In this document: piece by piece, positions 13,617 through 30,687 of the stretch
Position numbering within the stretch: position 1 is the stretch's first letter
How the letters are laid out: each line of letters starts with the position of its first letter
From: Candidatus Helarchaeota archaeon
Lineage (GTDB): Archaea; Asgardarchaeota; Lokiarchaeia; Helarchaeales; RDOG01
Assembly (NCBI GenBank): GCA_019058315.1
Contig: JAHPZH010000002.1
Coordinates: forward strand, 352,001-416,000
DNA: 64,000 bases
Direction of reading: 5' to 3'
The notes under the pieces: generated by a model
Told to the model about the DNA's origin: nothing
The model's input: the letters and a program-made list of their open reading frames with translations, nothing else
The model's database searches: none
Program-made: the position numbers and the translations under genes

Positions 13617-14828
13617 TTATATTATAAGTTCATTAACTAATTCTACAATGTCCTTAAATACTAATTTTGATCCGCTTTCTTTAATTGCATCCATTAGATT
13701 ACGTTGACAGAATGGACATGATGAAACTAAAATTTCCGCACCAGTGTCTTCAGCTTCTTTTATTCGGTCGATTGCAGTTTCTAAAGCCATATCTTTAAAT
13801 GCAGCCTTCACACCACCACCAGCACCGCAGCACCAAGCATTTTCCTGATTTCTTACCATTTCAACAAGCTTCAGTCCAGGAATGGCTTTTAAAATCCTTC
13901 TAGGCTGTTTATAAAGACCTCTACGCCTCGGCCTTGAATCGGACATTATACCTCTACCGATATGACAAGGGTCGTGGTAAGTAACCGTCTTATTTAATTC
14001 CTTAAGTTTTATCTTTCCATCTTTAATCAGTCTGTCTAGAAACTGTGTTATATGTATCAATTCAATATCTAATTTCTCTCCCAATAACTCAGGATAGTCA
14101 ACTAAAATAGTTCGATAACAACCTGCACAAGAAAAAATAAGCTTTTTTATACCTGCTTTTTTTATAGCTTCCATATTCTTTTTTGCTAATTCCATTGCTT
14201 GCTTTTGCATACCAGTTCGTAATAACGGACTTCCACAACAAATTTCTTCAGAACCAAGGATACGAAAGGGAGTATTTGTTTTATTTAAAATTTCTACAGT
14301 ATCTTTTGCAAGCTCTTTTTCTCTATAAGCCGATGTACATCCCACAAAATATGCAAGTTCTGCATTTGGGTCAATTTTTACATCTTTTGATAGCCAATCA
14401 AATCGTTGTCCATGTGGGTCTCCATAAGGGTTATTATTTTCAGCAGTACTCTTTGCAAAACCTAGATGTTGGGGCATAGGTCCCCATTCCATTTCTGCTA
14501 GCTTAGTCCTTAATGCTTCAATTATAGCAACATTATCCATACCTTTGAATTCTTTACAAGTAAGTGCACATGCACCGCAAGTGGTGCAAGCCCAAACAAG
14601 CTCTTTTAATGCTTCTGATGGTTCTTTTATTTCACCCTCGATGATAGCTCTCGCAATTTCCATACGTCCAACTGCATAATATGAGATAAAACCAAATTTT
14701 TTACCGCTTGGGCAACATTCTAGCCATTCATCTAGTGTCCAGTAATTAAATTGGTTACAGCCCATACAATGACCGCATGTTATAACATCATCTCTATATT
14801 CATCTAATTTTTTAACTTTTATTGTCAT
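13617..14828 (-). CDS. HdrD/GlpC-like Fe-S oxidoreductase with two CCG domains
   Basis: CGHCMGC...CP and CTTCGACALTC; 'FVGC', 'CCGSP', 'CAGC', 'YHDPCH', 'CCGAGGG', 'SCPFC'. Confidence 0.9.
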   Translation of the reverse strand: MTIKVKKLDEYRDDVITCGHCMGCNQFNYWTLDEWLECCPSGKKFGFISYYAVGRMEIARAIIEGEIKEPSEALKELVWACTTCGACALTCKEFKGMDNVAIIEALRTKLAEMEWGPMPQHLGFAKSTAENNNPYGDPHGQRFDWLSKDVKIDPNAELAYFVGCTSAYREKELAKDTVEILNKTNTPFRILGSEEICCGSPLLRTGMQKQAMELAKKNMEAIKKAGIKKLIFSCAGCYRTILVDYPELLGEKLDIELIHITQFLDRLIKDGKIKLKELNKTVTYHDPCHIGRGIMSDSRPRRRGLYKQPRRILKAIPGLKLVEMVRNQENAWCCGAGGGVKAAFKDMALETAIDRIKEAEDTGAEILVSSCPFCQRNLMDAIKESGSKLVFKDIVELVNELII

Positions 14829-14829
14829 T

Positions 14830-16290
14830 TTACCAAGTCAACTCCTTTTCCTCTGGAAATACTTTTCCTGGGTTCATTATTTCATTTGGATCAATTAACT
14901 TCATGATCTTGTGCCAAATTTCACCGTAAGTTCCTAATTCGTTGATTATCAATTTCATAGGATTTAAGAACGGTCTGAACCAGCCATAGATATGATATTC
15001 CTTAGTAATTAATTTTTTCAAAACGGCGTAATGGAAATTCTTGACCATTTCAACAGATTTCGGGTCTGCGCTAGTATAAGGGACTTCTGCCTCATAGTAG
15101 CAAGCTTGACCCCAAAAACCCGCAATAGGGGCATTTAATAAATCGACATTTTTTGCTTCGTATCCTGCTTTCACTCCAAGTTCTTTCATCATAGGTACAT
15201 ATTTGGGATATTGATATAAAGGACCTAAGAAAGCTAAAGCATGATAAGAACCCTCTCTTAAGAACCCAAAGATGTTACGAGGATATTTAAATTCCCTTGC
15301 TTGTTCTTCTGGAAGGGGAATGGCATTTGCCTTGTTTAAAGGCGATGATGTTTTATTTATAATCTCAAGTGCTAATTCTTTTTTGGCATCAACGATTTTT
15401 TGATGCCCTTCAATTACAATTGGAATTGTCCATTCTGGAAATGATCCACGCATCGACTCTAGGTCTTTTCTTGATCTTGCAAACAATTTAATTATGGTAT
15501 ATTGTGGTAAAATCCACAAAAGTGCTGGTATTTTATTCCACATGAGTTGTGGGACGGGTTTGATAGCTTCTTCGATTGAATTAAAACCAATACCTATAAA
15601 GGCTTCTGCTTCAGGGAGTGGGTAGAGTTTAACAGTCATTTCAGTGCATATTGCCATACTACCAGGCATACTTTGAAAGAGTCCTACAAAATCTGGGCTA
15701 CATGTGAATCTAAAGTGAGGTGGTGCATTAGGAAAAGCTACGGCACCTGTCTTCAAAATTCTGCCATCTGGAAGGACGAACTCAGCAGAACAGACGTGAT
15801 CAATACCATCTCCAGCATTTGTATGATAGACACCTCTTAATAAGTAGTTTGCAAGCAATGAGCCTGTTGCAGGAGCACCGGGAATACATGGACGCATACC
15901 ATATTTCCGAACTGCGATAGCCACTTGTCCATGAGTCACTCCTGGCTGAATGGTGGCTGTCATCATATCATGATTTATTTCAAGAATCTTGTTCATTCTT
16001 CTCATATCAAGCAAAATACTTCCATCTTTAGCTGGTGTACATAATCCTCTTACGTTTACACCGCGACTTAAAGGAACTACAGGAATCTTATTTTGATTAG
16101 CGAATTTTACTATTTCTTGAATTTCTTCTGTTGAAATTGGACGTACTATGACCGCAGGACGCTTTGGTACTACAAAAGGCCAATGCTGATCTCTGCTATA
16201 AGGTATTAACACTGCTTCTTCGTCTGAAACATGTTGATCTCCGACAATTTTTACTAAATTATCAACTAAACTTGCCAAATTTATACACAA
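14830..16290 (-). CDS. FAD-binding oxidoreductase (GlcD/D-lactate dehydrogenase, VAO family)
   Basis: 'PAVIVRPISTEEIQEIVKFA', 'LLDMRRMNKILE', 'QPGVT', C-terminal 'DPNEIMNPGK'; 1 nt from the CCG gene. True start may be the TTG at 16278. Confidence 0.88.
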   Translation of the reverse strand: MCINLASLVDNLVKIVGDQHVSDEEAVLIPYSRDQHWPFVVPKRPAVIVRPISTEEIQEIVKFANQNKIPVVPLSRGVNVRGLCTPAKDGSILLDMRRMNKILEINHDMMTATIQPGVTHGQVAIAVRKYGMRPCIPGAPATGSLLANYLLRGVYHTNAGDGIDHVCSAEFVLPDGRILKTGAVAFPNAPPHFRFTCSPDFVGLFQSMPGSMAICTEMTVKLYPLPEAEAFIGIGFNSIEEAIKPVPQLMWNKIPALLWILPQYTIIKLFARSRKDLESMRGSFPEWTIPIVIEGHQKIVDAKKELALEIINKTSSPLNKANAIPLPEEQAREFKYPRNIFGFLREGSYHALAFLGPLYQYPKYVPMMKELGVKAGYEAKNVDLLNAPIAGFWGQACYYEAEVPYTSADPKSVEMVKNFHYAVLKKLITKEYHIYGWFRPFLNPMKLIINELGTYGEIWHKIMKLIDPNEIMNPGKVFPEEKELTW

Positions 16291-16383
16291 TCCATTTTTT
16301 TATTGTATTTTTCTTTTATTTCTGAAAAAAACAGATTTTGATTATTGTTAAGTTATCCTTAGAAAATATAGATAAAAATTAAA

Positions 16384-16400
16384 ATGTCGAAATTCGATAT
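16384..16400. promoter_or_regulatory. Palindromic operator candidate ATGTC-GAAATTC-GATAT between the redox cluster and padR
   Basis: Near-perfect inverted repeat (ATGTCGAA-A-TTCGATAT) 22 nt upstream of the padR ORF; same spacing as the sites at 21291 and 24263. Confidence 0.6.
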
Positions 16401-16422
16401 TAATAATATAAGATACTAATGA

Positions 16423-17256
16423 GTGTTAATTATGTTTAAAAAAAAGCACAAAAGAGCACCAGTCAATAATTTTCAACTACAAATCCTAAGATTATTAAGA
16501 TATAGACCCATGTATGGGTATGAAATTTTAAATATATTCGAACAAAAAGGGTGGAGACCAAGTACAGGGACGTTATACCCTGCCTTAAAACAATTGGAAA
16601 AAAAAGAATTTATAGAATCATATAAAACTGAAGATCAAATACGTGGAGCCAACCCACGCACTAATTATAAATTAACAAAAAAAGGATTCGATTATGTCCA
16701 GACTACTTTTAATATTGATATAAGGCATCCTGAGCTCTATATTGAACCATTTATAGAATTACAGAATATGTATCTCAATGAAATATTTCGAGCCAAAGCT
16801 CTAGTGCTTGATTTTTTAAATTTCATTAATCCAGAAAATGTATTTAAAACCATGGCGGCTGGAAAAGTTCCTTCAAATATTGAATTTAAGAAAGTATACG
16901 ATTTTAACCTTGAGAATCCAAAATCTAAACTTTATGATTATATCGTATTATTTCTACCATTTTCATTTACTTTTCAAGATTTTTATAGTAATCCTGCTCG
17001 AAACCACCTAAAAGTTTTAAAAGATGTTAAATTAGCATTGAAACCAGATGGAGGCATTTTAATTATAGATATTGAATGGACTAAACATGCTCTTGTAGAT
17101 GTTTTAAGTTTTATGGCTACGGGTGAAGTAATGGAAATGGCTTACACAGAAGAACAAATAAAAACACTTTTAACAAATTCTGGATATGTTAACATTAATA
17201 TATTGAAGAAACAACGAGGAATAATAATAATATTGGCTGATAATAAATCTAATTAA
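16423..17256 (+). CDS. PadR-family transcriptional regulator with C-terminal degenerate methyltransferase-like domain
   Basis: 'ILRLL..PMYGYEIL', 'PSTGTLYPALKQLEKKEFI', 'YKLTKKG'; C-terminus 'LKVLKDVKLALKPDGGILIIDIE', 'YTEEQIKTLLTNSGY' without a GxGxG motif. Confidence 0.85.
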   Translation: MLIMFKKKHKRAPVNNFQLQILRLLRYRPMYGYEILNIFEQKGWRPSTGTLYPALKQLEKKEFIESYKTEDQIRGANPRTNYKLTKKGFDYVQTTFNIDIRHPELYIEPFIELQNMYLNEIFRAKALVLDFLNFINPENVFKTMAAGKVPSNIEFKKVYDFNLENPKSKLYDYIVLFLPFSFTFQDFYSNPARNHLKVLKDVKLALKPDGGILIIDIEWTKHALVDVLSFMATGEVMEMAYTEEQIKTLLTNSGYVNINILKKQRGIIIILADNKSN

Positions 17257-17294
17257 AAGATATTTTGAATTTCATTTACCGAGAAGATTGAAAT

Positions 17295-18677
17295 ATGTTT
17301 CAAAAAAAACAAACCATATTAAAAAAGATTCTAAAAAAAATTGGAAAGTTTTTTAAGTGGTTTGGTGTTTTTCTCATTCTTCTTTTTTCCATGTTATTGG
17401 GTATGATAATTTATTGGGTCATAAGACCAAATACTTCTGAAGTAAATTATACTCTCAGCACGGAATATTGGGTAGCAATGGGGTTGAAAATAGAAGGCCA
17501 TTCACATAACTCCAATACTGATATGATATATTGGAATGGTTCATTTTACCTAGTTCACCAAAATTCTCCTTATCATCTTACAAGTAAGCAAAGTAAATTG
17601 ATAATTTGGCGTTCTTCTGATGCGATAAGCTGGGATTTAGTTAAAATCATTTATTATCAAGAAGATATTAGAGATCCAAAGTTCGCTGTTATCGGTTCAA
17701 GACTCTATATGTATGCTCTCGTTAATTTCGGAGAGTTTATCGCGTCACCTGAAACCACTGTTTATACATATACTGAAGATGGGCAATCGTGGAAAGATTT
17801 CAAATTTATTGAGCCATACGGATGGTTATTCTGGAGGCCTAAAACCAGAGATAATAACACCTGGTACGTCCCAGCTTATTGGCGGGGACATGGAGCTTCA
17901 ATTTTATTGAATTCTACCGATGGTATGCATTGGGACTTTGTCTCACCAATATATTATGGTGAAAGAAATGATGAGACTGATATAGAATTTTTTCCAGATG
18001 GTAGAATGCTCTCAACTGGACGTTTAGAAGGTGAATCAGAATTTTTGTTTGGAGACAATAGAGGATCAACTGTCATTGCCGTTTCAAAACATCCTTATAA
18101 AAGTTGGACTTACATAAAATCCCAACTTACACGTTTAGATGGTCCTTGCCTCTTCGAATATGCAGGTAAAATTTTTGCGGTTGGGAGATATGAGACTCAA
18201 AATGATCCAGTATTTCATCAACAAGGAAGCTTTTTTAATCGAAAAAGAACGTCGTTATTCCTTGTTTCAGAAATTGGACTCGTTCACTTAGCAGATTTAC
18301 CTAGTGCAGGTGATACTTCATATGCAGGAGTTGTTATAAGGGGTGATCAAGCCTATATTTCCTATTATAGTAGCCCTATAAACCAAGATTGGCCATGGAT
18401 TCTAGGAGTAATCAGTGAAAGCGCAATTCGAATGGCAAAGATTGATCTCGATCGTTTAACATCTCTTGCGGAAATGAAACTATTGCAAGGAGTCAATAAT
18501 GATAAGAATATCGAACTTCCTTGGCAAGAATACATTGTCTTTTCCTTTATTATAATCATACAAAATTCAATTATCTATCTTCTAAAGAGATACAATCCTC
18601 TCTCTAAAAGAAAAAAGAAAATTAAACAAAAAATTACTCATATTCAAGTAATATTACTAATGGAATATATTAAATAA
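17295..18677 (+). CDS. Membrane-anchored sialidase/BNR-like beta-propeller protein
   Basis: TM near each end; Asp-box-like 'SSDAISW', 'TEDGQSW', 'STDGMHW'; 'DIRDPK', 'GDTSYAG'. Confidence 0.65.
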   Translation: MFQKKQTILKKILKKIGKFFKWFGVFLILLFSMLLGMIIYWVIRPNTSEVNYTLSTEYWVAMGLKIEGHSHNSNTDMIYWNGSFYLVHQNSPYHLTSKQSKLIIWRSSDAISWDLVKIIYYQEDIRDPKFAVIGSRLYMYALVNFGEFIASPETTVYTYTEDGQSWKDFKFIEPYGWLFWRPKTRDNNTWYVPAYWRGHGASILLNSTDGMHWDFVSPIYYGERNDETDIEFFPDGRMLSTGRLEGESEFLFGDNRGSTVIAVSKHPYKSWTYIKSQLTRLDGPCLFEYAGKIFAVGRYETQNDPVFHQQGSFFNRKRTSLFLVSEIGLVHLADLPSAGDTSYAGVVIRGDQAYISYYSSPINQDWPWILGVISESAIRMAKIDLDRLTSLAEMKLLQGVNNDKNIELPWQEYIVFSFIIIIQNSIIYLLKRYNPLSKRKKKIKQKITHIQVILLMEYIK

Positions 18678-18693
18678 AAGAAGTCGAGACTGA

Positions 18694-18804
18694 TTATTCA
18701 AGCGAAAAAGTCACCAACTTATTTTGAGTTAAATCTAAAGAACCTCTTTTCTCAACATACCCAATTCCAGTTTTAAATAGGACTATTTTGCGTATAATTA
18801 ACAT
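18694..18804 (-). pseudogene. 36-codon N-terminal remnant of a DUF4139-family gene
   Basis: MLIIRKIVLFKTGIGYVEKRGSLDLTQNKLVTFSLE* matches the N-termini at 37021/39038/45265/47288 (e.g. MLPINKVVLFKTGIGYFERKDKIDL); similarity stops at the TAA. Confidence 0.8.
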
Positions 18805-18916
18805 TCGAATCAATCTTCTTCTTAAAAAATTTATAAAATAAATCATTTTTCTATTGTTTTTCAGATGAATAAAATATATAATATACCAATAATAATAATA
18901 ATCTAGGGCGAAAATT

Positions 18917-19714
18917 ATGCAAATCAATTTCGAATATGGGGTTTTTTTCACGCTGAATAAAATAACTGGCTTTTCAATTTTTACAGATCCGTTGAATCTT
19001 TTCCAATTGCTAATATTATTGTCTGCAATGATATTTGGGATTTATGTTCTACATATTATATGGAAAGAATATAAAAGAACGAATAGTACCAATTCATTAA
19101 TCTTCTACGTTGCCGGAGTAATTATGTTAATTTCCGGTATTAGCATAACAACTGCAAAATTATGTTATGCAACGTTCGGGTGGCCTGAAATTGGAAGAAT
19201 ATTTGTTGGAATAAGCTGGGGCATAGCTATTTCAGGAATGATCTTTTATAATATATTTGCTTTACGTTCCACATTTCCAAAAAGGGTTAATGTATTAACT
19301 TCAATTATTATAGCAATATCATTTCTTTGTATATTAGTTCTGAATTATGCTATTTATATAGAACCGCCATTAGTATACACTGATCCAATTGATTTTGAAG
19401 ATCGATTCAGCTTAATAGTTTTATTGGTAATTTATTGCACTTTTATACCTGTTTCATTACTTCCTCCTTTGGTTTTTTCCTATTATTCAATAAAAATAAG
19501 AAATGAAGATAGAGCAAAAAGTAATTTGGCAATTTTCTTTGTAATAGGACTTCTTTGTATAGCTCTGGGTGTAATAAATGAGATAGGGCTTATTTATATC
19601 TTTATATTAGAAGTTATTTTCCGGTTCTTTATCTTGGCATATCCTATAGTGTTTTATTTTATCTTTGCTATGCCTGATTGGTTCAGAGAAAAACTTGGAT
19701 TAAAAAAAGAGTAA
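18917..19714 (+). CDS. Seven-transmembrane protein of unknown function
   Basis: About seven hydrophobic helices with short loops; ends 'FAMPDWFREKLG'. Confidence 0.7.
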   Translation: MQINFEYGVFFTLNKITGFSIFTDPLNLFQLLILLSAMIFGIYVLHIIWKEYKRTNSTNSLIFYVAGVIMLISGISITTAKLCYATFGWPEIGRIFVGISWGIAISGMIFYNIFALRSTFPKRVNVLTSIIIAISFLCILVLNYAIYIEPPLVYTDPIDFEDRFSLIVLLVIYCTFIPVSLLPPLVFSYYSIKIRNEDRAKSNLAIFFVIGLLCIALGVINEIGLIYIFILEVIFRFFILAYPIVFYFIFAMPDWFREKLGLKKE

Positions 19715-19892
19715 CCCTACTAAGCAGCAGAATATATCAAATTTTCTAAATTATTTTCTTATACATGACTTAGATATTCTTGATTCATTATTAGTTTTGC
19801 TAATGTCTATCATCGAATTTTCTGATATCTTTTTATTCGCTTTTTTTTTTGTTTATTAAAAAAAGGTTTAAAAATTAAAAGATGTGAACTAA

Positions 19893-21185
19893 ATGACAGA
19901 AAAGGTAGATCATTATCCTATGTGGAAAAATTTAGGTCTTGATCTTGAAAAACATGATCAATTATTAGCAATATTGCCTGATATTTACAAAAAAATTTAT
20001 ATCGAGACTCAAAAAAATCGTCCCGACATGAGTTTCTGGGACTTTGTTGTCGGAGATATACATGGAATTAGAATCAAAGAATTAAAAGAAGCAAAAGAAA
20101 AAGGTCAAAAAATTCTAGGTACATTTTGCCTTTATGTTCCAGATGAATTAATATTTGCAGTTAATGCAATTTCGGTAGGGCTTTGTGGGGGAACGAATTT
20201 CTCTAATTATGCTGCAGAAGGAATAGTTCCACCAAACCTTTGTCCATTAATAAAATCTGCCTTAGGTTTTGCTCTAGGAAATATTTGTCCCTATTTCAAT
20301 TCTCTAAACTTATTGGTTGGAGAAACAACATGTGATGGAAAGAAAAAAGCTTGGGAAGTTATGGAAAAATATTTCCCTTGTGAGTTATATGTTGTGGAAA
20401 TTCCCCAATGCAAAGACCGACCACAAGCAAGAGAGCATTGGATTGCAGAACTAAAAGCATTAGTTAAAAAGTTGGAAAATCTGACTAGTAATAAACTTAC
20501 GTTTGAGAATCTAAAAGCGGCAATGGAAAAAATAGAAAATAAAAGAAATCAAATTAGAAGAGTTTATCAAGCAAGAAAAGCCGATCCTCCTCCTATATCT
20601 GGAAAAGACGCCCTTTTAGTATCACAAGTTGCGTTCTATGATGATCCCGATAGAGAAATTCAAATGGTTGGGAAGCTTGCAGATGAATTGGAAAAGAGAA
20701 TAAGAGATGGGGTTGGTGTAGTTAAAAAAAGTACTAAAAGAATTTTGATTTCTGGAACTCCTATGGCGATACCAAACTGGAAATTACATCAAATAATAGA
20801 AACTAGTGGGGCTATTGTGGTTTGCGAAGAAACTTGCACTGGAACAAGATATTTTGACGCTAAACTGGAAATTACTGGAAAAACGTTAGAAGGATTGATC
20901 GGAAATTTGGCTGAGAGGTATTTAAATATTAATTGTGCTTGTTTCACTCCTAATGAAGCAAGAACTGAGGATATAAAAAGACTTGTAAAAGAATACAAAG
21001 CCGATGGTGTAGTTCTATATTCATTATCATTCTGTCAGCCTTATATAATCGAATCAATCGCCATTGAAAAAAAATTAAAAGAAATAGGAATCCCAACAAT
21101 CTCAATTGAAACCGATTACTCAAGCGAAGATGAGGGACAATTAAAGACCCGAATAGAAGCATTCCTAGAAATGATTAAAAAATAA
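19893..21185 (+). CDS. Double-cubane-cluster reductase (DCCP)-like member of the 2-hydroxyacyl-CoA dehydratase family
   Basis: 'HGIRIKEL', 'GTFCLYVP', 'GLCGG', 'LCPLIKS', 'CPYF', 'GETTCDGKKK', 'EETCTG', 'NCACFTPN', 'FCQPY', 'ETDYS..D.GQLKTRIEAF'. Confidence 0.82.
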   Translation: MTEKVDHYPMWKNLGLDLEKHDQLLAILPDIYKKIYIETQKNRPDMSFWDFVVGDIHGIRIKELKEAKEKGQKILGTFCLYVPDELIFAVNAISVGLCGGTNFSNYAAEGIVPPNLCPLIKSALGFALGNICPYFNSLNLLVGETTCDGKKKAWEVMEKYFPCELYVVEIPQCKDRPQAREHWIAELKALVKKLENLTSNKLTFENLKAAMEKIENKRNQIRRVYQARKADPPPISGKDALLVSQVAFYDDPDREIQMVGKLADELEKRIRDGVGVVKKSTKRILISGTPMAIPNWKLHQIIETSGAIVVCEETCTGTRYFDAKLEITGKTLEGLIGNLAERYLNINCACFTPNEARTEDIKRLVKEYKADGVVLYSLSFCQPYIIESIAIEKKLKEIGIPTISIETDYSSEDEGQLKTRIEAFLEMIKK

Positions 21186-21290
21186 AATTATTATTTTTTT
21201 TCTAATTTTTCTAATATTTCTTGTTCAGTAAAAACAAATTTATCTGGAATCTTATTTTTCTGTTTCCTATTTTTTAGATTATTGTGTTTT

Positions 21291-21307
21291 ATATCTTAAT
21301 TTGACAT
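21291..21307. promoter_or_regulatory. Palindromic operator candidate ATATC-TTAATTT-GACAT
   Basis: TTATATC-N7-GACATAA about 107 nt upstream of the ORF at 21415. Confidence 0.5.
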
Positions 21308-21414
21308 AAATTTTTAAAAATTTAGAAATAATTCAAGAATTGTTAATAATTTGAGTTATATCTAAAATTTACTAATATTTTAAAATTCTAAATTATTCAA
21401 AATCAATATTTAAG

Positions 21415-22665
21415 GTGTTTTTATTGGCTTGGCATGAAAAGGTAAAAGAAATAAAAGAAAGAAGACTTAAGGAATTGGAAGGTGTTGATATAAAAAGTAT
21501 ACTAGCCGCTGGTGATAAAGAAATTTATAATACAATCCCAGATAGTGTATTTTCCAAACCTTATCTACCTTTATGTACACAAGTTTGGAAATTTTTTAAG
21601 TATATGGATTGGCATTACTTTGATAGTATCTATGCCGATTTTGCAGAAGCATGCCTTGATGAACTAGTTTTGCGGATGGAGGAAGCAATTGAGGTCTCTA
21701 AAGCTTACTCAGAAGGTAAATTGAAAGATCCTAAGAAAACAATATGTTATTGGATTTTACCACCAGTTCTAGTTGTCAGGGCAGATTTAATACAGGGTGC
21801 GATCAGGCTTGTGTATGGAAACTCGGCTGATATAACCTTCATGGGTGTCTCAGACTTCGATAAAGAAGTTCTTTTTGGAATAAACTTTCATTTCGAAAAT
21901 GGGCTTGCAACAAACTATTGGTATATGAAACCTGGTGATGAATTTCTCGATAAACGGCATATGAAACTGGGAACTAAACTTAAAGATTTGCCAAAAGAAA
22001 TACCCGACTTTCATGAAGCAGCAGGTAAAATCCGTGATATTTTATTAGATGTAAGAAATATTCAAGATCCTAATCATGCTCAATCTGCATACAATGTATG
22101 TTTATTTTTAATGTCAGCAGGTCCAAATAATGGTGTTTTTGTAAGTAATTTCGATGAATACAGCTTCATGTGGGAGGGAATTAACAGTTATAAATTGAAT
22201 GAGGAATGTAAAACTGACATTTTAAAAGACACTATCCAATTTTATGAGCCATGGCCACCAATTTTCCTTCAGCTTACCCGTTTAAAAAGAGATCTCTGGA
22301 TAAAACGGATTTCAGGTCTTCTAATTGACAAACAACTCTATTGTCAATACGTATTGAACAAGAAACTCTTTGATATTTTACCAGTAAAAGAAGTACTTGA
22401 AAAAGATTGGGAAGAAGGTGTTCCTACTCCCGCTCAAACTATTGCCCATGAATTCTCAGATTATAAAAATTGGCGATTTGGTTATAAATTACCAGAAGGA
22501 CCTCGTATTCACTATGAAGATTTCGGTTTATCTCTTAAAGAAGCTATGGGAGGTTTTTTAACAGATATAACTTGGCAAACTGAACCACCCTTTACAAGAG
22601 ATAATTTAATTTCCATTGGTCATGGATTAAATACAAAAATTATAAAAAAGGATGAAGAGACTTAA
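21415..22665 (+). CDS. Hypothetical protein, paralog of 22918..24084 (acr-associated unknown family)
   Basis: Long ORF; shares PPVLxVRxDL, YGNSxDITF, RHMKLG, DILxDVRN, SAY, EEGVPTP with its neighbour. Confidence 0.85.
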   Translation: MFLLAWHEKVKEIKERRLKELEGVDIKSILAAGDKEIYNTIPDSVFSKPYLPLCTQVWKFFKYMDWHYFDSIYADFAEACLDELVLRMEEAIEVSKAYSEGKLKDPKKTICYWILPPVLVVRADLIQGAIRLVYGNSADITFMGVSDFDKEVLFGINFHFENGLATNYWYMKPGDEFLDKRHMKLGTKLKDLPKEIPDFHEAAGKIRDILLDVRNIQDPNHAQSAYNVCLFLMSAGPNNGVFVSNFDEYSFMWEGINSYKLNEECKTDILKDTIQFYEPWPPIFLQLTRLKRDLWIKRISGLLIDKQLYCQYVLNKKLFDILPVKEVLEKDWEEGVPTPAQTIAHEFSDYKNWRFGYKLPEGPRIHYEDFGLSLKEAMGGFLTDITWQTEPPFTRDNLISIGHGLNTKIIKKDEET

Positions 22666-22917
22666 TTTTTTTCAGGTATTATTCTGTAATAATCCTTCTA
22701 GCATATATCACAGAATGTAAAATTTATTAATAGAAATTATAATGATAATAAAATTCTTAGGATGAAAAAATATATTTTTTATATAGAGTTTAAATAATAA
22801 GTTTTATTAAATTCAAAAAAACACTATTTAATCAAAATAAAAAATCGAAAGCCACTCACATAAAAAATATAAATTTTAATTAGAATACATAAAAAAAATA
22901 AAAAGGAGATAGTATAA

Positions 22918-24084
22918 TTGACTCATACTTATGGAGAGATACCAGATGACGTTGTGACGAAACGTTTCGTTCCCTTGGCAGAAAATTTATATTCATTATT
23001 TCAGGAACTAGGTTGGGATTATTTCTATGAAGAATTTACAGATAAAGGCACTCAATTTTTCGAGAAAGTCCCAGATTTTTTAAGTGATAAATTTCAAAGG
23101 GCAGTAACGACAGCTAAAAAGGTTATAGACGGATCAATACCAACACCTGAGAATGTATTTACAACATTCTTCTTTCCCCCTGTGTTATATGTACGAACTG
23201 ATCTACAAATGGGCAGTACTAAACTTATCTATGGAAATTCGACTGACATTACATTTATTGTCATGAATGATATGAATTATAATTTGGAACTCTTAATAAA
23301 TGCACACATGGAGGATGGAATTCCAGTAGATTATTGGTTCATTAAAAGTGGTGACGAAGTCTTTGATAGAAGACATATGAAGCTTGGTTTTAGACTTGCA
23401 GAGATTCCTTCAAAAACAAAGGACTTTTTCAAAAGTGGGCTTCGTATATTGGATATTTTAAGAGATGTTAGAAATGAACGAAGTCCACAATGGTCCGATT
23501 CTGCATATTCCATGGCAATGAATTGGGCTGGTGGATCAACCAACATGTTCATGGAGTCATCAAGTTACAATGTACTCGGACAACTTTGGGATGGTGTAAA
23601 CGCTAAAAAGGAATATGGTATGCCCGATATGTACTTTGGATACATCCCTTACCCTCCGATATTGAAGATGCTACTATCAATGGGACGTCCAGAGTTCATG
23701 ATAAGAATTGAAGGTTTGCTAAGTCATAATCGCTTATTTATTCATGCATATGAACCTGAACACTATGAATTTATGAAATTCATCTCACCAGAAGCATTAG
23801 AATGGAGCTTTAGGAAAATGAAGGAAGAAGGTGTGCCAACTCCTAGACAGTCTTTAGGTTGCCATGTACCTAAATTAAAAGATAAAAAAACATATAAAAA
23901 TGAAGAGTTCGGATTTGTATACCCCGAAGGAACAAGAATAATGCCTTACGAATGGGGCCTAACAGATGATGAAGCATTCAGCGGAATTTATACCGATATT
24001 TCACATGAAACTCCGTCGGAACCATTTTATGGGAAGGAACATGTAGTCAATATAGGCGTCGGTAAAGACGTGAGACCAATTTAA
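22918..24084 (+). CDS. Hypothetical protein, paralog of 21415..22665 (acr-associated unknown family)
   Basis: TTG start after AGGAG; full-length colinear similarity to the upstream gene. Confidence 0.85.
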   Translation: MTHTYGEIPDDVVTKRFVPLAENLYSLFQELGWDYFYEEFTDKGTQFFEKVPDFLSDKFQRAVTTAKKVIDGSIPTPENVFTTFFFPPVLYVRTDLQMGSTKLIYGNSTDITFIVMNDMNYNLELLINAHMEDGIPVDYWFIKSGDEVFDRRHMKLGFRLAEIPSKTKDFFKSGLRILDILRDVRNERSPQWSDSAYSMAMNWAGGSTNMFMESSSYNVLGQLWDGVNAKKEYGMPDMYFGYIPYPPILKMLLSMGRPEFMIRIEGLLSHNRLFIHAYEPEHYEFMKFISPEALEWSFRKMKEEGVPTPRQSLGCHVPKLKDKKTYKNEEFGFVYPEGTRIMPYEWGLTDDEAFSGIYTDISHETPSEPFYGKEHVVNIGVGKDVRPI

Positions 24085-24262
24085 TTAATTCTATATTTTA
24101 ACAACCAATATTTTTTCTTTTAATTATTTAATTCCTTGGAAGAGGACTTAGTATTTCTTTATTAGGAAAAAGATCTTTTTATTTACTTATCTATTTATTA
24201 AAAAATTTAATAAAATAATAGCTATTTTCTCTTGTCCTAGTTTTTTATCATTTATTTTTATT

Positions 24263-24279
24263 ATGTCTATATTTGACAT
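24263..24279. promoter_or_regulatory. Palindromic operator candidate ATGTC-TATATTT-GACAT upstream of acrA
   Basis: Perfect 7-bp arms TTATGTC-N7-GACATAA (24261..24281), about 134 nt upstream of the acrA ATG. Confidence 0.6.
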
Positions 24280-24413
24280 AAACATTTTTGAAAAAAAAAT
24301 CGTCTAAAGATTAACCAAGATTTAGTTTAATAGTCGGAATTTTCATTTATTATTGTTAAAAAATAATGAAGTTAGAGCAATTTATCTAATTTAAATAATT
24401 TTAAGGCGATTGT

Positions 24414-26213
24414 ATGTCAAAAGAAGGAAAAAAATCTGAGAAAACAATTCGAGAGATAGATTATGGCTATGATCTTTTCTCAATAGCAAAAAAATTTCTT
24501 CCAGTTGAACAGGAACGTGTTGTTTATAAGACAATGCAAAAGGTCTTTGGCGTAAATCCATTAGCTCCTAGAGACAACTCTATGTATCGCAGAGGTGGAT
24601 TTAAACAAAATAAAAGAAAAGTAGAATTCATGAAAGCTGCTAAAAAAATTGCCAAAGAGAGAGGAATTCCCATGTATAATCGTGCAGTCGGAATTCCACT
24701 TGGACAAAGAGCGTTAGAGCCATATCTAATATCTGGTACAGATACTTTTGTTGATTTTGATGATGTTCATCATGTTAATAACGCTGCCATCCAACAGATG
24801 GTAGATGATATTAAAAGAACCGTAATTATCAATCTTGATATTCCACATCGTGTTCTCCAAGTTAGAGCAGGAAAGGAGATTACACCTGAAACTGTAAATC
24901 TTTACTTAGAAACTATTCAGCACACCATGGCAGGAGGTGCTGTAGCCCAAGAGCATATGGCTGAAATAAATCCTGGATTAACATTTGATGGATATGCGAA
25001 GGTAATCACAGGAGATGATGAAATACGGGACATGCTCGACAAGAGATTTTTATTAGATATTGATAATTTATTCCATCCAAGTCGGGTTGAACAATTAAAA
25101 AGAGCAATTGGTAGCACAATGTTTTTACTTGCCCGAGTTCCAACCATAGCGGTTCGGATGGCAGATGGTGGAGTTGTATATCGATGGGCTGCAATGCAAT
25201 CTACTATGGCATTTGTTGCAAGTTACCGATTAACAGGAGAAAGCATTATCTCAGATTTAGCTTATGCTGCAAAAAGTGCACAGCTTGTCCAGATGGGTGA
25301 AAGAACGTGGTTTGCGAGAGCAAGGAGTCAAAATGAAATAGGTGGAATACCATTTGGCTATATGAATGACTTTATGCAATCAGATTCTCGACTTCCAGCA
25401 AAACCGTTCCTAAGGGTCATACATGAAGATGGCGTTGATGTGGCAAGAGAATATATAGGTGCATTAACAAAAGGCCTTGGTGCTATTGGGGCAGTTTTGA
25501 CTGAACAATATTGGTTAAGTTTTTATATGTCTGGAGGTATTGGATTTGCCACCACAGTTGCAAGCGCAGGATATTGTGGTAATGTATTAGAAGAATTCAC
25601 TGACCAAACTACGGAAATTCTTGCAAAATATGGCAAGGTGCTTAAAGTCAAACCAAATTGGGATACAGTCCGTTGGGTTATTGATCTTATTATACAATAT
25701 TGCATGGAGACCTATGAAAAATATCCATCATTGACCGAATATCATTGGGGTGGTGCACATAGAATATCAGTAATTGGGAACCTTTCAGCGACTGTAGCTT
25801 CTTTATTAACAGGCTCTTCAACTTTAGGCTGTATGGCTATGCATTATTCAATAGGTTTGTTAATGAAGGAAGGTTGGTTAAGAACGGGTTGGGCAGGTCA
25901 AGAAGTCCAAGATCACGTGGGTATCGCTTATCTTTGTAGTCCCAGAATAGAGGAAGGAGTCTTTCCAGAACTTAGAGGCATGAATTATCCTGTTGCAAGC
26001 TTTACTGCTGGTCATGCTAGCGGATATATTGGCGCTGCGGCAGGAACTGCTCTTCATAGGGGTCAACCTTGGTCAACTTCTCCTATAGTCAAAGCCGCAT
26101 TTGCAGATCCTCATTTAATATTTGATTTCGCAGAACCAAGGCTAGCAATTGCTAAAGCGTGTTTGAGAGAATTCAAACCCGCAGGTGAACGAGATCTAAT
26201 TATTCCAACATAA
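24414..26213 (+). CDS. mcrA: Methyl/alkyl-coenzyme M reductase alpha subunit, divergent ACR type
   Basis: 'ERGIPMYN', 'GIPLGQR', 'DDVHHVNNAAIQQMVDDIKRT', 'EITPETVNLYLE', 'AVAQEHMAE', 'RARSQNEIGG', 'YMSGGIGF', 'PELRGMNYP', 'AFADP', 'EFKPAGER'. Confidence 0.96.
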   Translation: MSKEGKKSEKTIREIDYGYDLFSIAKKFLPVEQERVVYKTMQKVFGVNPLAPRDNSMYRRGGFKQNKRKVEFMKAAKKIAKERGIPMYNRAVGIPLGQRALEPYLISGTDTFVDFDDVHHVNNAAIQQMVDDIKRTVIINLDIPHRVLQVRAGKEITPETVNLYLETIQHTMAGGAVAQEHMAEINPGLTFDGYAKVITGDDEIRDMLDKRFLLDIDNLFHPSRVEQLKRAIGSTMFLLARVPTIAVRMADGGVVYRWAAMQSTMAFVASYRLTGESIISDLAYAAKSAQLVQMGERTWFARARSQNEIGGIPFGYMNDFMQSDSRLPAKPFLRVIHEDGVDVAREYIGALTKGLGAIGAVLTEQYWLSFYMSGGIGFATTVASAGYCGNVLEEFTDQTTEILAKYGKVLKVKPNWDTVRWVIDLIIQYCMETYEKYPSLTEYHWGGAHRISVIGNLSATVASLLTGSSTLGCMAMHYSIGLLMKEGWLRTGWAGQEVQDHVGIAYLCSPRIEEGVFPELRGMNYPVASFTAGHASGYIGAAAGTALHRGQPWSTSPIVKAAFADPHLIFDFAEPRLAIAKACLREFKPAGERDLIIPT

Positions 26214-26294
26214 TTTCAAAGTTTATTTAATCATTTTAATTTATTTAGCATAGAAATAACCTAGAAATGTGATTTAAAAAAAAGATGATAAAAA

Positions 26295-27896
26295 ATGGAA
26301 GATTTTATTGTTGTTAAAAACCTATTTAAAGAGTTTGAAAGAGGCTCCCCTGCTTATATTGATATAAGCTTTACAATTAAAGAAGGAGCCTCATTTGGTA
26401 TTTTGGGTAAGTCAGGATCTGGAAAAAGTGCTTTAATGCATGCACTTCGTGGCACTCCAGAATATAAACCGACGAAAGGAACAGTCATATATAGGATTTC
26501 TGCATGTCCTAATGATGATTGTCTTTATATCGATTACCCCTCATTAGCAAATTCAAGTTGCCCAAATTGCAACTCAACTTTGGAATTGAAAGAATTCGAT
26601 TTTTGGAAAGAGGCAGAAACTAACTCTCCCCTTTTTCGCGCACTTTATAATCGAATATCAATTATGTTGCAACGTACGTTCGCACTTTACGGAGAACTAC
26701 CCGTATTAGCAAATCTAACTGAGGCTCTAGAAAAAGCAGGCGTTCCTGAAAGACGAAGAGAGGGTAAAGCAGCATTATTACTATCAAAAGTTAATTTAAC
26801 ACACCGTTCAATGCATATTGCCCGTGACTTATCAGGAGGAGAAAAACAACGTGTAGTTTTCGCTATGAGTCTGGCGAAAAATCCACTTCTTTTCCTTGCA
26901 GATGAACCCACTGGAACACTTGATGTAATAACAAGTAAAAAAATCCATAAAACAATGAAGACGGCTGTTAATAAGGATAAACTTACGCTTATTGTGACTT
27001 CACATTGGCCACTTGCCGTTGAAGAATTAACATCAGAAGCAATATTATTAGAGGATGGAAAAATTACGATGCATGCTGATTCTTCTGAAGTGGCTAAGAA
27101 GTTTTTAAGTCAAGTAGAAAAAGTAGAGAGGACAAAAAGAGAGTTTAAAAATAAAATTATGAAAGTTGAGAATTGTATTAAACATTATTACACATTTGAT
27201 AGGGGAATTATTAGAGCTGTAGATGGTGTCTCTCTTGATATTTATGAAAATGAGATTTTTGGGCTTGTTGGTCTTTCAGGTTCTGGAAAAACAACTCTGT
27301 CCCTAATGATGTGTGGTTTGAAAGATATTACAATGGGAAAAATCTGGGTCAATATAGGGGATGAATGGGTCGATATGAGCATCCCAGGTCCATATGAACG
27401 TGGTAGAGCTACAAATTATATGGACATTCTTCACCAAGAATATGCTCTCTATCCTCATTTGATAGTTCTACAAAATCTAACTGGGGCAATAGAATATCCG
27501 ATTCCAGAGGAAATGAAAACCAAAAAAGCTTATGACTCATTAAAGGCAGTAAATTTCACAAATGATGAAATTGAAAATATTCTCTATAAATTTCCAGAAC
27601 AAATTAGTGAAGGAGAACGACACCGAGTTGCCATTTCTCGAATTTTAATAAAAGAACCGAAAATTTTGTTTTTTGATGAGGCAACTGGAACTGCAGACCC
27701 ATTAACTCGGATGGAAATAGTACGTTCAATAAAAAAATCCCGTGATGACCTTAATCAAACATATGTCATAATAAGTCATGATATTGATTTTGTCTTAGCT
27801 GCTTGTGATAGAGCAGCATTAATGAAAGATGGTCACGTTTTAAAAGTTGGAGAACCCGCGGAGATCATAGAATATTTTAAAGAGGTAGAGAAATAA
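26295..27896 (+). CDS. atwA: Methyl-CoM reductase system component A2 (tandem ABC ATPase)
   Basis: Two Walker A motifs (GKSGSGKS, GLSGSGKT), Cys insert CPNDDC..CPNC, 'IMLQRTFALY', 'HIARDLSGGEKQR', 'GDEWVDM', 'LHQEY', 'SEGERHRVA'; no TM partner. Confidence 0.93.
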   Translation: MEDFIVVKNLFKEFERGSPAYIDISFTIKEGASFGILGKSGSGKSALMHALRGTPEYKPTKGTVIYRISACPNDDCLYIDYPSLANSSCPNCNSTLELKEFDFWKEAETNSPLFRALYNRISIMLQRTFALYGELPVLANLTEALEKAGVPERRREGKAALLLSKVNLTHRSMHIARDLSGGEKQRVVFAMSLAKNPLLFLADEPTGTLDVITSKKIHKTMKTAVNKDKLTLIVTSHWPLAVEELTSEAILLEDGKITMHADSSEVAKKFLSQVEKVERTKREFKNKIMKVENCIKHYYTFDRGIIRAVDGVSLDIYENEIFGLVGLSGSGKTTLSLMMCGLKDITMGKIWVNIGDEWVDMSIPGPYERGRATNYMDILHQEYALYPHLIVLQNLTGAIEYPIPEEMKTKKAYDSLKAVNFTNDEIENILYKFPEQISEGERHRVAISRILIKEPKILFFDEATGTADPLTRMEIVRSIKKSRDDLNQTYVIISHDIDFVLAACDRAALMKDGHVLKVGEPAEIIEYFKEVEK

Positions 27897-27897
27897 A

Positions 27898-28395
27898 ATG
27901 AAAGATTTAGATTCAGAACTGGAATATGAGTATAAAGAACCTTCAGGAAAATGGTGGGAAGAACTCGAATGGATTTTTCCTCCAGAAGAAGACCGAGAAC
28001 CCACATGTTATGAAATGGTTCAGAGTTTTATTATAAATAAAGTTGTTCCTTGTGCTAAGTGTGTGGAATTATCGGGACGGTTTTTACCTCGTGTAATTAC
28101 CATTGAAGCTGAACACCCGATTCGAGGAAATGAGTACTCACGAATAATTATAAGTCCAGTCGATGTAGCAGACGGAGCTCCAACAGTAGAACCCGACCTC
28201 TTAATCCATATTAAATATTACGACTTGTTAAGAGTATTAGATGGAGAATTAGATATAATGAAACCATTATTTTTTGGAGAAGGCTGGTTAATCGGTAATA
28301 CAACAACTGGTTTTGATTTGAAAGATTTAGTCGATGTAGCAAATGGAAAAGAATTAGTTGAGAGACCTAAAGCTTGGCCAATAGGTCACCCATAG
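27898..28395 (+). CDS. SCP2 (sterol carrier protein 2)-like lipid-binding protein inside the acr operon
   Basis: 'EPDLLIHIKYYDLLRVLDGELDIMKPLFFGEGWLIGN' follows the SCP2 C-terminal pattern (PD-x-x-I...L..G.LD.M.....G....G); 1 nt after atwA, 11 nt before acrB. Confidence 0.65.
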   Translation: MKDLDSELEYEYKEPSGKWWEELEWIFPPEEDREPTCYEMVQSFIINKVVPCAKCVELSGRFLPRVITIEAEHPIRGNEYSRIIISPVDVADGAPTVEPDLLIHIKYYDLLRVLDGELDIMKPLFFGEGWLIGNTTTGFDLKDLVDVANGKELVERPKAWPIGHP

Positions 28396-28406
28396 GAGAG
28401 TTTAAT

Positions 28407-29801
28407 ATGATTAAAGATAAAGTTGACGTTTATAATGATGAGGGTGAATGCATAGGAGAAGATTTACCCATAAAAGCATTCTCTCCCTTATATAATCCGT
28501 ATATGGTAAAAGTTTATAATATGATCAAGAGAACCGCATTTATTTCACTAGAAAAATTAGAACAAAATATACGTAAAGGTCGTTTTGGTGAAATGACAAC
28601 CTTACGTCAGGACGAAATACAGATGCCTCAATTTGAACGGAAATGGAAGCTTGTTGATATGGGGCCTGAAATTGCGGAAAAAATGAATAAAATCATTTCT
28701 ATGGACGAAGGATTTAATGGTAAGGATGATGGTTCGAATGTAGATCTGATAGCGGGTGGTAAAATGCTAAGAGTATCCTTACCACAAAGAAGAATAGATA
28801 TTGCAGCTTCCATTGCCCCACTTTATACAATAACTGGGACTGCACTCGCTCAATCTCTTATTGATCTTCTTGATTTAAACCCAATGAATGATATTGATGG
28901 TTGTAATATAGTAAAAACGGCAATTTTTGGTCGTTTTCCACAAACCAGAGAATTTGGATCTTCATGTCCTATTTTTGCTTTTTGTAAACCTCCTCAATTG
29001 GAAGAAGGCATAGGAACTCTGTTCCGTGGTCTCATGATAAACCATATAGTTGCTTTGTCCAATTTTCGGACTTTCGATGCAGTAGCATTAGCAACTTTAT
29101 TAGAACAAGCAGGACAAACAGAGATGGGAAATGCTATAGGGTGGTATGAGCGCTATAATTTATTGACAACCGCATATCAAGGATTTAATGGAAATAACTT
29201 AGTGTTAGATTTAATTAAAGAATACGGTACTGATGGGACAGTTAGTGATGTTGTACATGGTCTAATTGAAAGATCTTTAAATGATGGGGTTATATATCCT
29301 AAAGGAGATAAATTCCCACACACTCAACCTTCTGGATATAAAATTTATTCAACTAAAGATTATCCGCTTTGGAATGCATATTCATGTGCTGGGTTGTTAG
29401 CTGCTGTTTGTGTAAATGTAGGTGCATCTCGTGCTGCACAAGGTTGTGGCGCAGTAATGTCTAGTTTTAGTGATATTCTTTCATTTGAAACTGGGGGTCT
29501 TCCAGATCCAGATGCTGGAAGGATTTTTGGGACTGCACTCGGTTTTACATTTTATACACATTCAATTTATGGTGGGGCTGGACCTGGGGCTTTTACGATG
29601 GACCATGTTATAACTCGCCATACTAGTGGCTTTTTTACACCATGTGTTGCTGCAGCGATGTGTCTAGATGCAGGAACCCAAATCTTTACTCCAAAATTGA
29701 CTTCTGGAAATTATTTTACGCTTCGAAAAGAAATACCACTGCTCACTGATGTTGTTGTTAAGACCACTGAGGCTGCAAAGGAGATAAAAAATAAATTTTA
29801 A
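28407..29801 (+). CDS. mcrB: Methyl/alkyl-coenzyme M reductase beta subunit
   Basis: 'DKVDVYNDEG', 'SPLYNP', 'FGRFPQT', 'EMGNAIGWYER', 'AYQGFNGNNLV', 'LWNAY', 'HSIYGGAGPG', 'HVITRH', 'LDAGTQ'. Start set to the ATG at 28407 after GGAGAG. Confidence 0.96.
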   Translation: MIKDKVDVYNDEGECIGEDLPIKAFSPLYNPYMVKVYNMIKRTAFISLEKLEQNIRKGRFGEMTTLRQDEIQMPQFERKWKLVDMGPEIAEKMNKIISMDEGFNGKDDGSNVDLIAGGKMLRVSLPQRRIDIAASIAPLYTITGTALAQSLIDLLDLNPMNDIDGCNIVKTAIFGRFPQTREFGSSCPIFAFCKPPQLEEGIGTLFRGLMINHIVALSNFRTFDAVALATLLEQAGQTEMGNAIGWYERYNLLTTAYQGFNGNNLVLDLIKEYGTDGTVSDVVHGLIERSLNDGVIYPKGDKFPHTQPSGYKIYSTKDYPLWNAYSCAGLLAAVCVNVGASRAAQGCGAVMSSFSDILSFETGGLPDPDAGRIFGTALGFTFYTHSIYGGAGPGAFTMDHVITRHTSGFFTPCVAAAMCLDAGTQIFTPKLTSGNYFTLRKEIPLLTDVVVKTTEAAKEIKNKF

Positions 29802-29802
29802 G

Positions 29803-30687
29803 GTGAAAATTATGGAAGAAGATGTTTTTGCAGTTGCAGATATTGAAAAATTCAAGAGAAAGAAAAAGAAAGTAGAAAGAAAAGAAGTAGAGAAAAAAGT
29901 TGAAGTTATAGAGGGTAAATATGAACCTCAATTTTACCCAGGACAAGGTCCGGTATCGGAAAGAAGGCGAAAATTATTAAATAAAAATAAAAAGTTATTG
30001 AAATTACGAAGTATTCCAGATGATGATGTGGTTAAATTACTCGGACATCGTCTACCGGGCAGTTTATATCGTAGTATTCATCCCCCTCTAGACGAATTAA
30101 TCCAAGAATATGATCCTATTAAAATGCTTGTAAAACCTACCCCAGGAGCACGTGCAGGTGATCGTGTCCGCTTTGTCCAATTCACTGATAGTTTTTGGAG
30201 ACCTCCTTTTGCCCCTTGGTTAAGAGCAAGGTATTATTTCAATCGTCTACGAGGTGTGGATACCGTTATTTACTCGGGACGTGAAATTTTAGAAATGAGG
30301 GAACGTGATCTAGAGGCAGCCACAAAAATACTAATTGAAACAGAACTTTTCGATCCAGCTAGAACAGCTCTTAGAGGAATTACTGTTCATGGTAGTTCAT
30401 TGAGATTAGATACTGATGGATTAATGTTTGACGCTCGACGTCGATATGTATTGGATAAAGACGTTAATGAAGTTGTTTATATTAAAGATATGCATGCAAA
30501 GATGTTAGATAAACCTATCCCGGTAGGAAGACCTTTCAACGAAGATGAATTAGTTGAGTTTGACGTGACTTATAGATGGGATGCTTCGATGTATAAATCA
30601 CGTACTGAAATTTTAACAGTAATTAATAGAATTGCAAAAGGTAGATTATTAGCAGGTTTTAGACCAGAATTAGTAAATGATTTTTAA
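29803..30687 (+). CDS. mcrG: Methyl/alkyl-coenzyme M reductase gamma subunit
   Basis: 'PQFYPG', 'LGHRLPG..Y.SIHPPL', 'PTPGARAGDRVRFVQFTDS', 'SGREILEMRERDLE', 'RGITVHG', 'DGLMFD'. The ATG at 29812 (after AGGTGA) is an equally likely start. Confidence 0.95.
   Translation: MKIMEEDVFAVADIEKFKRKKKKVERKEVEKKVEVIEGKYEPQFYPGQGPVSERRRKLLNKNKKLLKLRSIPDDDVVKLLGHRLPGSLYRSIHPPLDELIQEYDPIKMLVKPTPGARAGDRVRFVQFTDSFWRPPFAPWLRARYYFNRLRGVDTVIYSGREILEMRERDLEAATKILIETELFDPARTALRGITVHGSSLRLDTDGLMFDARRRYVLDKDVNEVVYIKDMHAKMLDKPIPVGRPFNEDELVEFDVTYRWDASMYKSRTEILTVINRIAKGRLLAGFRPELVNDF

Follow-up and report, generated by a model that had tools for sequence, protein, structure and literature searches.

Both described PadR subfamilies use inverted repeats of ATGT and ACAT separated by a spacer of about 8-10 nt (PMC3506622). 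In Archaea, RosR recognizes an imperfect palindrome near start codons, and its targets include other regulators (PMC4287449). MreA is described as TrmB-like (PMC3419521), and FilR1 showed no binding to the mcr promoter (PMC3991700). Our literature search turned up no acr operon for which a regulator or operator has been described (the first-pass annotation of the DNA analysed here knew of no such regulator either), and it found neither a PadR/methyltransferase-like fusion nor a conserved operator before an Asgard alkyl-coenzyme M (CoM) reductase operon. To our knowledge, metagenomes are so far the only source of alkyl-CoM reductases from Helarchaeales-type Asgard archaea. Here, we consider such a locus in a 64,000-nt stretch (the window; C5:352001-416000) of a 5.79-Mb Candidatus Helarchaeota genome with 30% G+C. 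The window encodes a PadR-like protein of 274 aa, and we think it probable, from comparison of sequences, that this protein binds a family of 17-bp palindromes located at padR itself, at acrA, at a gene that we call unk416, and at an alkylsulfatase-like gene elsewhere in the genome.

Palindromes upstream of padR, acrA and an alkylsulfatase-like gene

Three 17-mers at 16384, 21291 and 24263 had been picked out by eye in the first-pass annotation, and all are present exactly as written there, on the plus strand and in intergenic DNA. The argument turns on these sites, the padR-like gene and the acr operon:

16384..16400, no strand assigned: site 1, a strong palindromic operator candidate, ATGTCGAAATTCGATAT (exact match, intergenic)
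16432..17256, plus strand: padR-like gene, 274 aa (P0001), with a PF03551 winged helix and a degenerate methyltransferase-like C-terminal domain of about 180 aa
21291..21307, no strand assigned: site 2, the weakest copy, ATATCTTAATTTGACAT, its end 107 nt upstream of unk416
24263..24279, no strand assigned: site 3, a weak operator-like palindrome, ATGTCTATATTTGACAT, with an exact ATGT-N9-ACAT, its end 134 nt upstream of the acrA ATG
24414..30687, plus strand: acrA-atwA-165aa-acrB-acrG operon, the proposed target (Pfam MCR alpha, beta and gamma, and ABC ATPase)

Site 1 is in the spacer shared by padR and the divergent FAD_binding_4 gene, 31 nt before the padR ATG and about 94 nt from the FAD_binding_4 start. 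We compared nine padR loci, with full-length PadR orthologs on metagenome contigs that are 64-93% identical. In eight of the nine, a palindrome with the core CGAA-NN-TCG is positioned 19-31 nt before the start codon, with TATA-like runs on its other side:

Window and L032: ATGTCGAAATTCGATAT
L027: ATTGCGAATATCGAAAT
L033: AAGGCGAAATTCGAAAT
L028-30: ATTGCGAAAATCGACAT
L031: AAGTCGAATTTCGATAT
L034: AAGTTGAAATTCATCAT, with both half-sites changed symmetrically (a TGAA.TTCA variant)
L035: ATATCGAAGGTCGTCCT

The sites carry 1.38 bits per column, against 0.33-0.40 in their flanks. C, G and A at positions 5 to 7 and T, C and G at positions 11 to 13, the inner CGA/TCG letters, are invariant, while positions 3-4 and 14-15, within the outer ATGT/ACAT letters, vary. 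The palindrome stays with padR even in L035, where the divergent neighbor is a different gene.

To search other promoters we used a matrix built from the seven distinct padR-proximal sites only, with no acrA site included, and took as the empirical p the maximum over a same-length region drawn from other intergenic DNA of the genome. AcrA orthologs 90-97% identical to that of the window are encoded in five other loci (L028, L031 and L065-L067, the last three at 96%). All five have a palindrome of the padR-site family 100-180 nt upstream of acrA, three of them far above background:

L067: ATGTCAAAATTCGACCT, 18.0 bits, p <0.001
L066: ATATCAATATTCGCCAT, 14.5 bits, p 0.0014
L028: ATATCGAAAATCGCAAA, 13.8 bits, p <0.003
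L065: ATATCAAATAACGACAT, 9.1 bits, p 0.022
Window, site 3: ATGTCTATATTTGACAT, 10.2 bits, p 0.035
L031: ATATCGATTTCCAACTG, 5.1 bits, p 0.12

Phylogenetic footprinting upstream of acrA orthologs was a check proposed in the first-pass annotation, and a search of these regions without the matrix identified the site as the best-conserved element. In this matrix-free search of the six upstream regions it was the top shared 17-mer, level with the ribosome-binding site, and scored 98.8 against a maximum of 93.9 in 150 null trials. The best local alignments of the window region to L066 and L067 consist of the site and the A/T box that follows it. Around the persisting site, the acrA flanks are otherwise too diverged to align.

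The best match to the padR matrix in the whole genome, ahead of site 1 in second place, is ATGTCGAATTTCGCCAT (26.7 bits, intergenic, C5:847215-847231, equivalent to L062:4216-4232), 31 nt before a gene with metallo-beta-lactamase (Lactamase_B) and alkylsulfatase dimerisation (Alkyl_sulf_dimr) domains. This alkylsulfatase-like gene follows a GNAT-SCP2 gene. Its 81% ortholog in L068, on an unrelated contig, has ATATCAAATTTCGACAT 97 nt upstream (at 9888), and no other match in the 21 kb of this locus reaches 12 bits. A further 564 kb of intergenic DNA from the genome holds no position of at least 18 bits, two of at least 16.5 and four of at least 14.5. Thus, the motif is conserved at two or more promoters, namely padR in eight loci, acrA in six and the alkylsulfatase-like gene in two, and is rare elsewhere, as expected of a regulon.

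Pooling 14 sites gives a perfect palindrome as consensus, ATGTCGAA-A-TTCGACAT (ATGTCGAAATTCGACAT), that is, ATGT-N9-ACAT. It has the half-sites and spacer length of a canonical PadR operator, an expectation that is independent of these data. One part of the common palindrome proposed earlier is therefore upheld, in that a single family of PadR operator shape stands before padR and acrA and is conserved at both in orthologs. In the padR sites of relatives, on the other hand, the ATRTC/GAYAT letters at positions 3-4 and 14-15, which the window sites have in common, are those that vary. Every site adjoins an A/T-rich, TATA-like box, and at acrA, unk416 and a gene of the HGD-D family a TATA-like run begins 1-4 nt beyond the right half-site (AAATTTTTAAAA, AAATATTAAAA or TTTTTAT).

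The PadR-like protein, a candidate switch and its rivals

The PadR-like protein is a member of the family by its DNA-binding domain. Residues 21-91 match PF03551 at 60.8 bits against a cut-off of 27, and solved PadR structures, which are the best sequence matches, align with residues 14-90 (5dym, E 5e-9). Its architecture is atypical and places it outside the two described subfamilies, since the C-terminus is neither a single dimerisation helix nor a helical domain of about 80-90 aa. The C-terminal domain matches Methyltransf_31 weakly (E 0.007) and is modeled as an alpha/beta fold like that of class I methyltransferases (predicted local distance difference test, pLDDT, 73; Foldseek to O-methyltransferases, E 4e-10, template modelling (TM) score 0.35). 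Class I methyltransferases usually carry a glycine-rich S-adenosylmethionine (SAM) loop. At the position expected for this loop the ortholog alignment has a conserved VLDFLNFINP and no glycine-rich loop. We consider the domain more likely to be a sensor than a catalyst, because the N-terminus is a true PadR match with conserved operators nearby.

The homodimer model scored 0.52, against 0.01 for the best control. Of proteins solved as pairs of one chain, 20 of 30 reached that mark, as did one of 23 among those solved as single chains. Different runs agreed on at least 59% of contacts, with a partner pLDDT of at least 74. The predicted interface is symmetric and formed by residues 214-237 (conserved EWTKHALVD.LSF), which are in the methyltransferase-like domain and not in the winged helix. 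A homodimer would fit a palindromic site, but resemblance to solved dimers may account in part for the model. Among 40 related species genomes a full-length padR ortholog was found only in the window genome, and a search of a collection of genome contigs with the PadR alignment found no relative.

From the sites, their conservation, the family likeness and the domain make-up of the protein we infer binding, a sign of regulation and an effector. In the model we propose, a homodimer of the PadR-like protein would sit on ATGTCGAA-A-TTCGACAT. The strong copy abutting TATA-like sequence just upstream of the padR start codon would give autoregulation, and weaker copies directly upstream of a TATA-like AAATTTTTAAAA box would place acrA and the relocated, acr-linked unk416 under the same control, with a further strong copy before the alkylsulfatase-like gene. 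At acrA the bound protein would cover the edge of the B recognition element (BRE) and the TATA box, the BRE having its usual position in archaeal promoters, and so hold the acr operon off until a small molecule taken up by the methyltransferase-like domain released the repressor. By analogy with the family, for which a ligand-released repressor has precedent, repression seems somewhat the likelier sign; that the protein is instead an activator bound just upstream of the BRE and TATA box is a serious possibility, if the lesser one. That it senses an alkane-derived metabolite, such as an alkyl-thioether or an acyl-CoA intermediate, and in response switches on the acr operon, its accessory genes and the alkylsulfatase-like gene is a more tentative suggestion, which we regard as conceivable but doubtful.

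Loci that lack padR have a conserved palindrome of their own, [AC]CGA-N5-TCGGTKAT (for example ACCGAAATTCTCGGT), between acrA and a directly divergent FAD gene. Its CGA/TCG arms are those of the padR operator, its spacer is 2 nt longer, and it may be the operator of a different acr regulator. The spacers concerned are:

L014:3286-3589
L024:1031-1441
L037:9517-10000
L038:9489-10000
L059:1445-2026

Several observations weigh against our proposal. On one rival reading, the window sites are alike by chance in A/T-rich DNA and none is functional. The first-pass annotation had itself cautioned that the motif was found by eye, and rightly so, as two nulls that allow for free choice show no excess in the window alone. 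The strict 17-bp pattern occurs six times in the genome, and ATRTC-N7-GAYAT 46 times, of which five are intergenic and three of these five are the window sites (0.01 expected in a shuffle test, against three found), but these counts and the shuffle test are post hoc, the pattern having been written from the sites themselves. When the best 17-mer common to any three of seven neighboring intergenic regions was scored with G/C matches weighted, the 40.6 of the window trio was matched or exceeded by 59% of 120 random islands; the intergenic DNA of this genome is 78% A+T. A second count took clusters of three intergenic 5-N(0-15)-5 palindromes within 10 kb, allowing no more than one mismatch and requiring two or more G/C in each half-site; of about 580 10-kb bins, 16-20 hold such a cluster when intergenic DNA is shuffled, and 51 do in the real genome. 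The window alone thus proves no motif, the likeness of its three sites not being beyond chance, and support for the motif comes from conservation in other loci. That conservation has weak points as well: L036 has no clear palindrome before padR, the L031 acrA site is weak, 43 other intergenic positions of the genome equal or exceed the score of site 3, the p-values of the orthologous promoters are not independent because of their common ancestry, and the co-occurrence of padR with an acrA site rests on three loci (window, L028 and L031, with padR within 8 kb of acrA), the L065-L067 and L068 contigs being short. Chance nevertheless appears a very improbable explanation, given that the motif is conserved at all three promoters amid unalignable flanks, and flanks so diverged also argue against recent copies of one sequence.

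A different explanation restricts PadR operators to site 1 and the alkylsulfatase-gene site, and takes the element at acrA and unk416 for a core-promoter feature or the site of another factor, like the padR sites only in its A/T-rich outer letters. On the padR-derived matrix sites 2 and 3 reach 4.3 and 10.2 bits, compared with 14.5-23.5 for the padR sites; both lack the CG core, with T in place of the G6 and C12 that are invariant at padR; position 6, G at every padR site, is A, T or G at acrA sites; and the acrA element always abuts a TATA-like box. We think this unlikely. A matrix blind to the acrA sites gives those of L067, L066 and L028 scores of 13.8-18.0 bits, and in these three TCG is retained on at least one side; moreover, the element is a palindrome that matches the padR site in its 17-bp span and its center. 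It was also not found (p 0.12-0.95) either in the padR-less loci G005, G006, L037, L038 and L059, where acrA is directly divergent from the FAD gene, or at the two paralogous acrA genes of the window genome. The palindrome family could also be real and yet be bound by something else, with padR a mere target. Two tandem paralogs of the PadR-like protein (C1:108303-109988, L063:4304-5986; 43-45% identity), encoded directly after an FGGY sugar kinase gene, share its STG(T/S)LYPAL recognition stretch, nearly the same helix, and could be the true binders, and the CGA-N5-TCGGTKAT palindrome of the padR-less loci implies that some other factor reads CGA/TCG arms in this archaeal order. Against such a binder, the strongest and best-conserved sites follow padR whatever its neighbor, no matrix match was detected in the upstream regions of the paralog operon on C1, and self-regulation at the own promoter is usual in the PadR family. 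We would call a paralog or an unrelated factor quite improbable, and binding by the PadR-like protein the more probable reading. In the second tandem paralog, one tool reads an internal TAA where the open reading frame list has an open frame.

Promoter block of sites 2 and 3, and neighboring genes

Sites 2 and 3 are embedded in a similar block of about 70 nt, which is also the context of the TATA-like boxes:

21256..21327, plus strand: promoter block copy A, site 2 followed directly by TATA-like AAATTTTTAAAAAT (local alignment, nhmmer)
24226..24303, plus strand: promoter block copy B, site 3 followed by AAACATTTTTGAAAAAA (local alignment, nhmmer)
21415..24084, plus strand: unk416 and unk388, paralogs of each other at 34% identity, from a large family with no Pfam match

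The local alignment score of the two copies, 56, was reached by one of 3000 random intergenic pairs, and nhmmer matched the block only at the two window copies and in L027, which rules out a dispersed repeat or miniature inverted-repeat transposable element. Neither this block nor the alkylsulfatase-gene site, the best in the genome and located outside the window, had been remarked on in the first-pass annotation. An unk416 ortholog is directly downstream of acrA in L014, L028, L031, L037 and L038, and the order in relatives is acrA-unk416-atwA, with unk416 upstream of acrA instead in the window genome; in L036 an unk416 ortholog is divergent from padR. Most simply, the move of unk416 would have been accompanied by duplication of the acr promoter module. 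Because its orthologs are conserved, we credit site 3 as probably functional, and site 2 would count mainly as its duplicate. The L027 counterpart of site 2 is ATATCTAAGTTTGACAT, but as the whole spacer is about 82-86% identical there, it carries little weight. Control of the unknown gene pair, part of the regulon first suggested, is accordingly reduced to the duplicate before unk416, for unk388 (22918) has no site of its own. Nor was the motif found before the other 31 members of the unk416 family, which has about 33 paralogs in the genome, and neither Pfam nor the protein atlas gave anything usable on its identity.

Some other explanations of these sites were rejected. An early reading, that sites 2 and 3 are unrelated to site 1, was overturned by closer acrA orthologs. 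The direct divergence of the FAD gene from acrA in padR-less relatives suggested an insertion scar or att site flanking the segment from padR to unk388; this is ruled out by L028 and L031, where both sites are retained within different gene arrangements. An RNA element or terminator is ruled out by an Rfam search of 16000-24600 that gave no match, and a terminator would hardly consist of an A/T-rich stem of 5 bp and a 7-nt loop.

Two further regions could belong to the same system:

13617..16290, minus strand: FAD_binding_4 and CCG (GlcD/HdrD-like) genes, divergent from padR, a possible further target (Pfam)
19794..19836, plus strand: conserved block of about 43 nt upstream of the HGD-D gene (three-way alignment of the window, L031 and L028)

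The first pair, CCG (13617-14828) and FAD_binding_4 (14830-16290), are the last genes of a seven-gene redox cluster on the minus strand. Control of this cluster is possible, because it shares a spacer with padR and the divergent arrangement is conserved in six loci (kept in L027, L028-30, L031, L032 and L033). In the HGD-D block an ATGTC and a GATAT half-site, 16 nt apart, precede TTTTTAT. The block hardly varies among three lineages (counterparts near 11415 in L031 and at about 12530-12575 in L028), and its 17-mer at 19803 scores 11.1 bits on the matrix built from the whole set of sites. The HGD-D gene may thus be a fourth target, with a spacing unlike that of the others.

On the plus strand, padR (ATG 16432) is followed by genes for a beta-propeller protein, an unknown 265-aa protein and the HGD-D family protein (Pfam), then by unk416 (21415-22665), unk388 (22918-24084), acrA (24414), the ABC ATPase gene atwA, a 165-aa gene, acrB and acrG. 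The close relative L027 lacks the 265-aa and HGD-D genes (window 18682-21191), a 2.5-kb indel, and the family of the 265-aa gene has about 30 copies in the genome. Adjacent to acrA or close by, L028 (2857-3609) and L031 (14274-15026) encode a 250-aa protein with weak HTH_24/HTH_11 matches, a possible second regulator in these lineages; the window genome has only 38-41% homologs of it, none at the acr locus.

Comparison with described regulators

While the PadR family and its operator type are already known, this locus offers a first testable candidate switch for the Helarchaeales-type alkane-activating enzyme. A conserved operator next to a predicted ligand-binding regulator can be tested at the bench without culture of the organism, and a ligand that released the protein from DNA would point to the substrate of the pathway or its first intermediate. 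Should the protein sense an alkane metabolite, it would be the first substrate-responsive regulator of an alkyl-CoM reductase, and its ligand would reveal the hydrocarbon used by uncultured Asgard archaea. The fusion of a PadR winged helix to a methyltransferase-like domain, here read as a probable sensor, also extends the architectures of the family beyond the two described subfamilies.

The bacterial PadR repressors, B. subtilis PadR, L. lactis LmrR and B. cereus bcPadR1/2, likewise have a PF03551 winged helix, an ATGT...ACAT repeat, a site at the regulator's own promoter and a homodimer, the last only predicted here. The present system differs in its archaeal host, with TBP/TFB promoters, in a conserved core that extends inward (CGAA/TTCG), in a methyltransferase-like C-terminus of about 180 aa where the bacterial proteins have a short helix or a domain of about 80 aa, and in its proposed target, an alkyl-CoM reductase operon. 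In the order of its folds, a winged helix and then a Rossmann-type methyltransferase, the protein resembles the plant and bacterial class I O-methyltransferases ASMT, COMT and Rv2258c, in which the winged helix serves dimerisation, but at an identity of 10-14% and a TM-score of 0.35. RosR of Halobacterium salinarum also has an archaeal PadR-like winged helix and is related in sequence, if weakly (6qfd/6qil among the matches, E 0.008), and differs as a single domain of about 120 aa with a G+C-rich 20-bp motif and an oxidative-stress regulon. Finally, MreA of Methanosarcina and FilR1 of Methanosaeta are likewise archaeal transcription factors, which have been examined in relation to genes of methanogenesis, but belong to other families.

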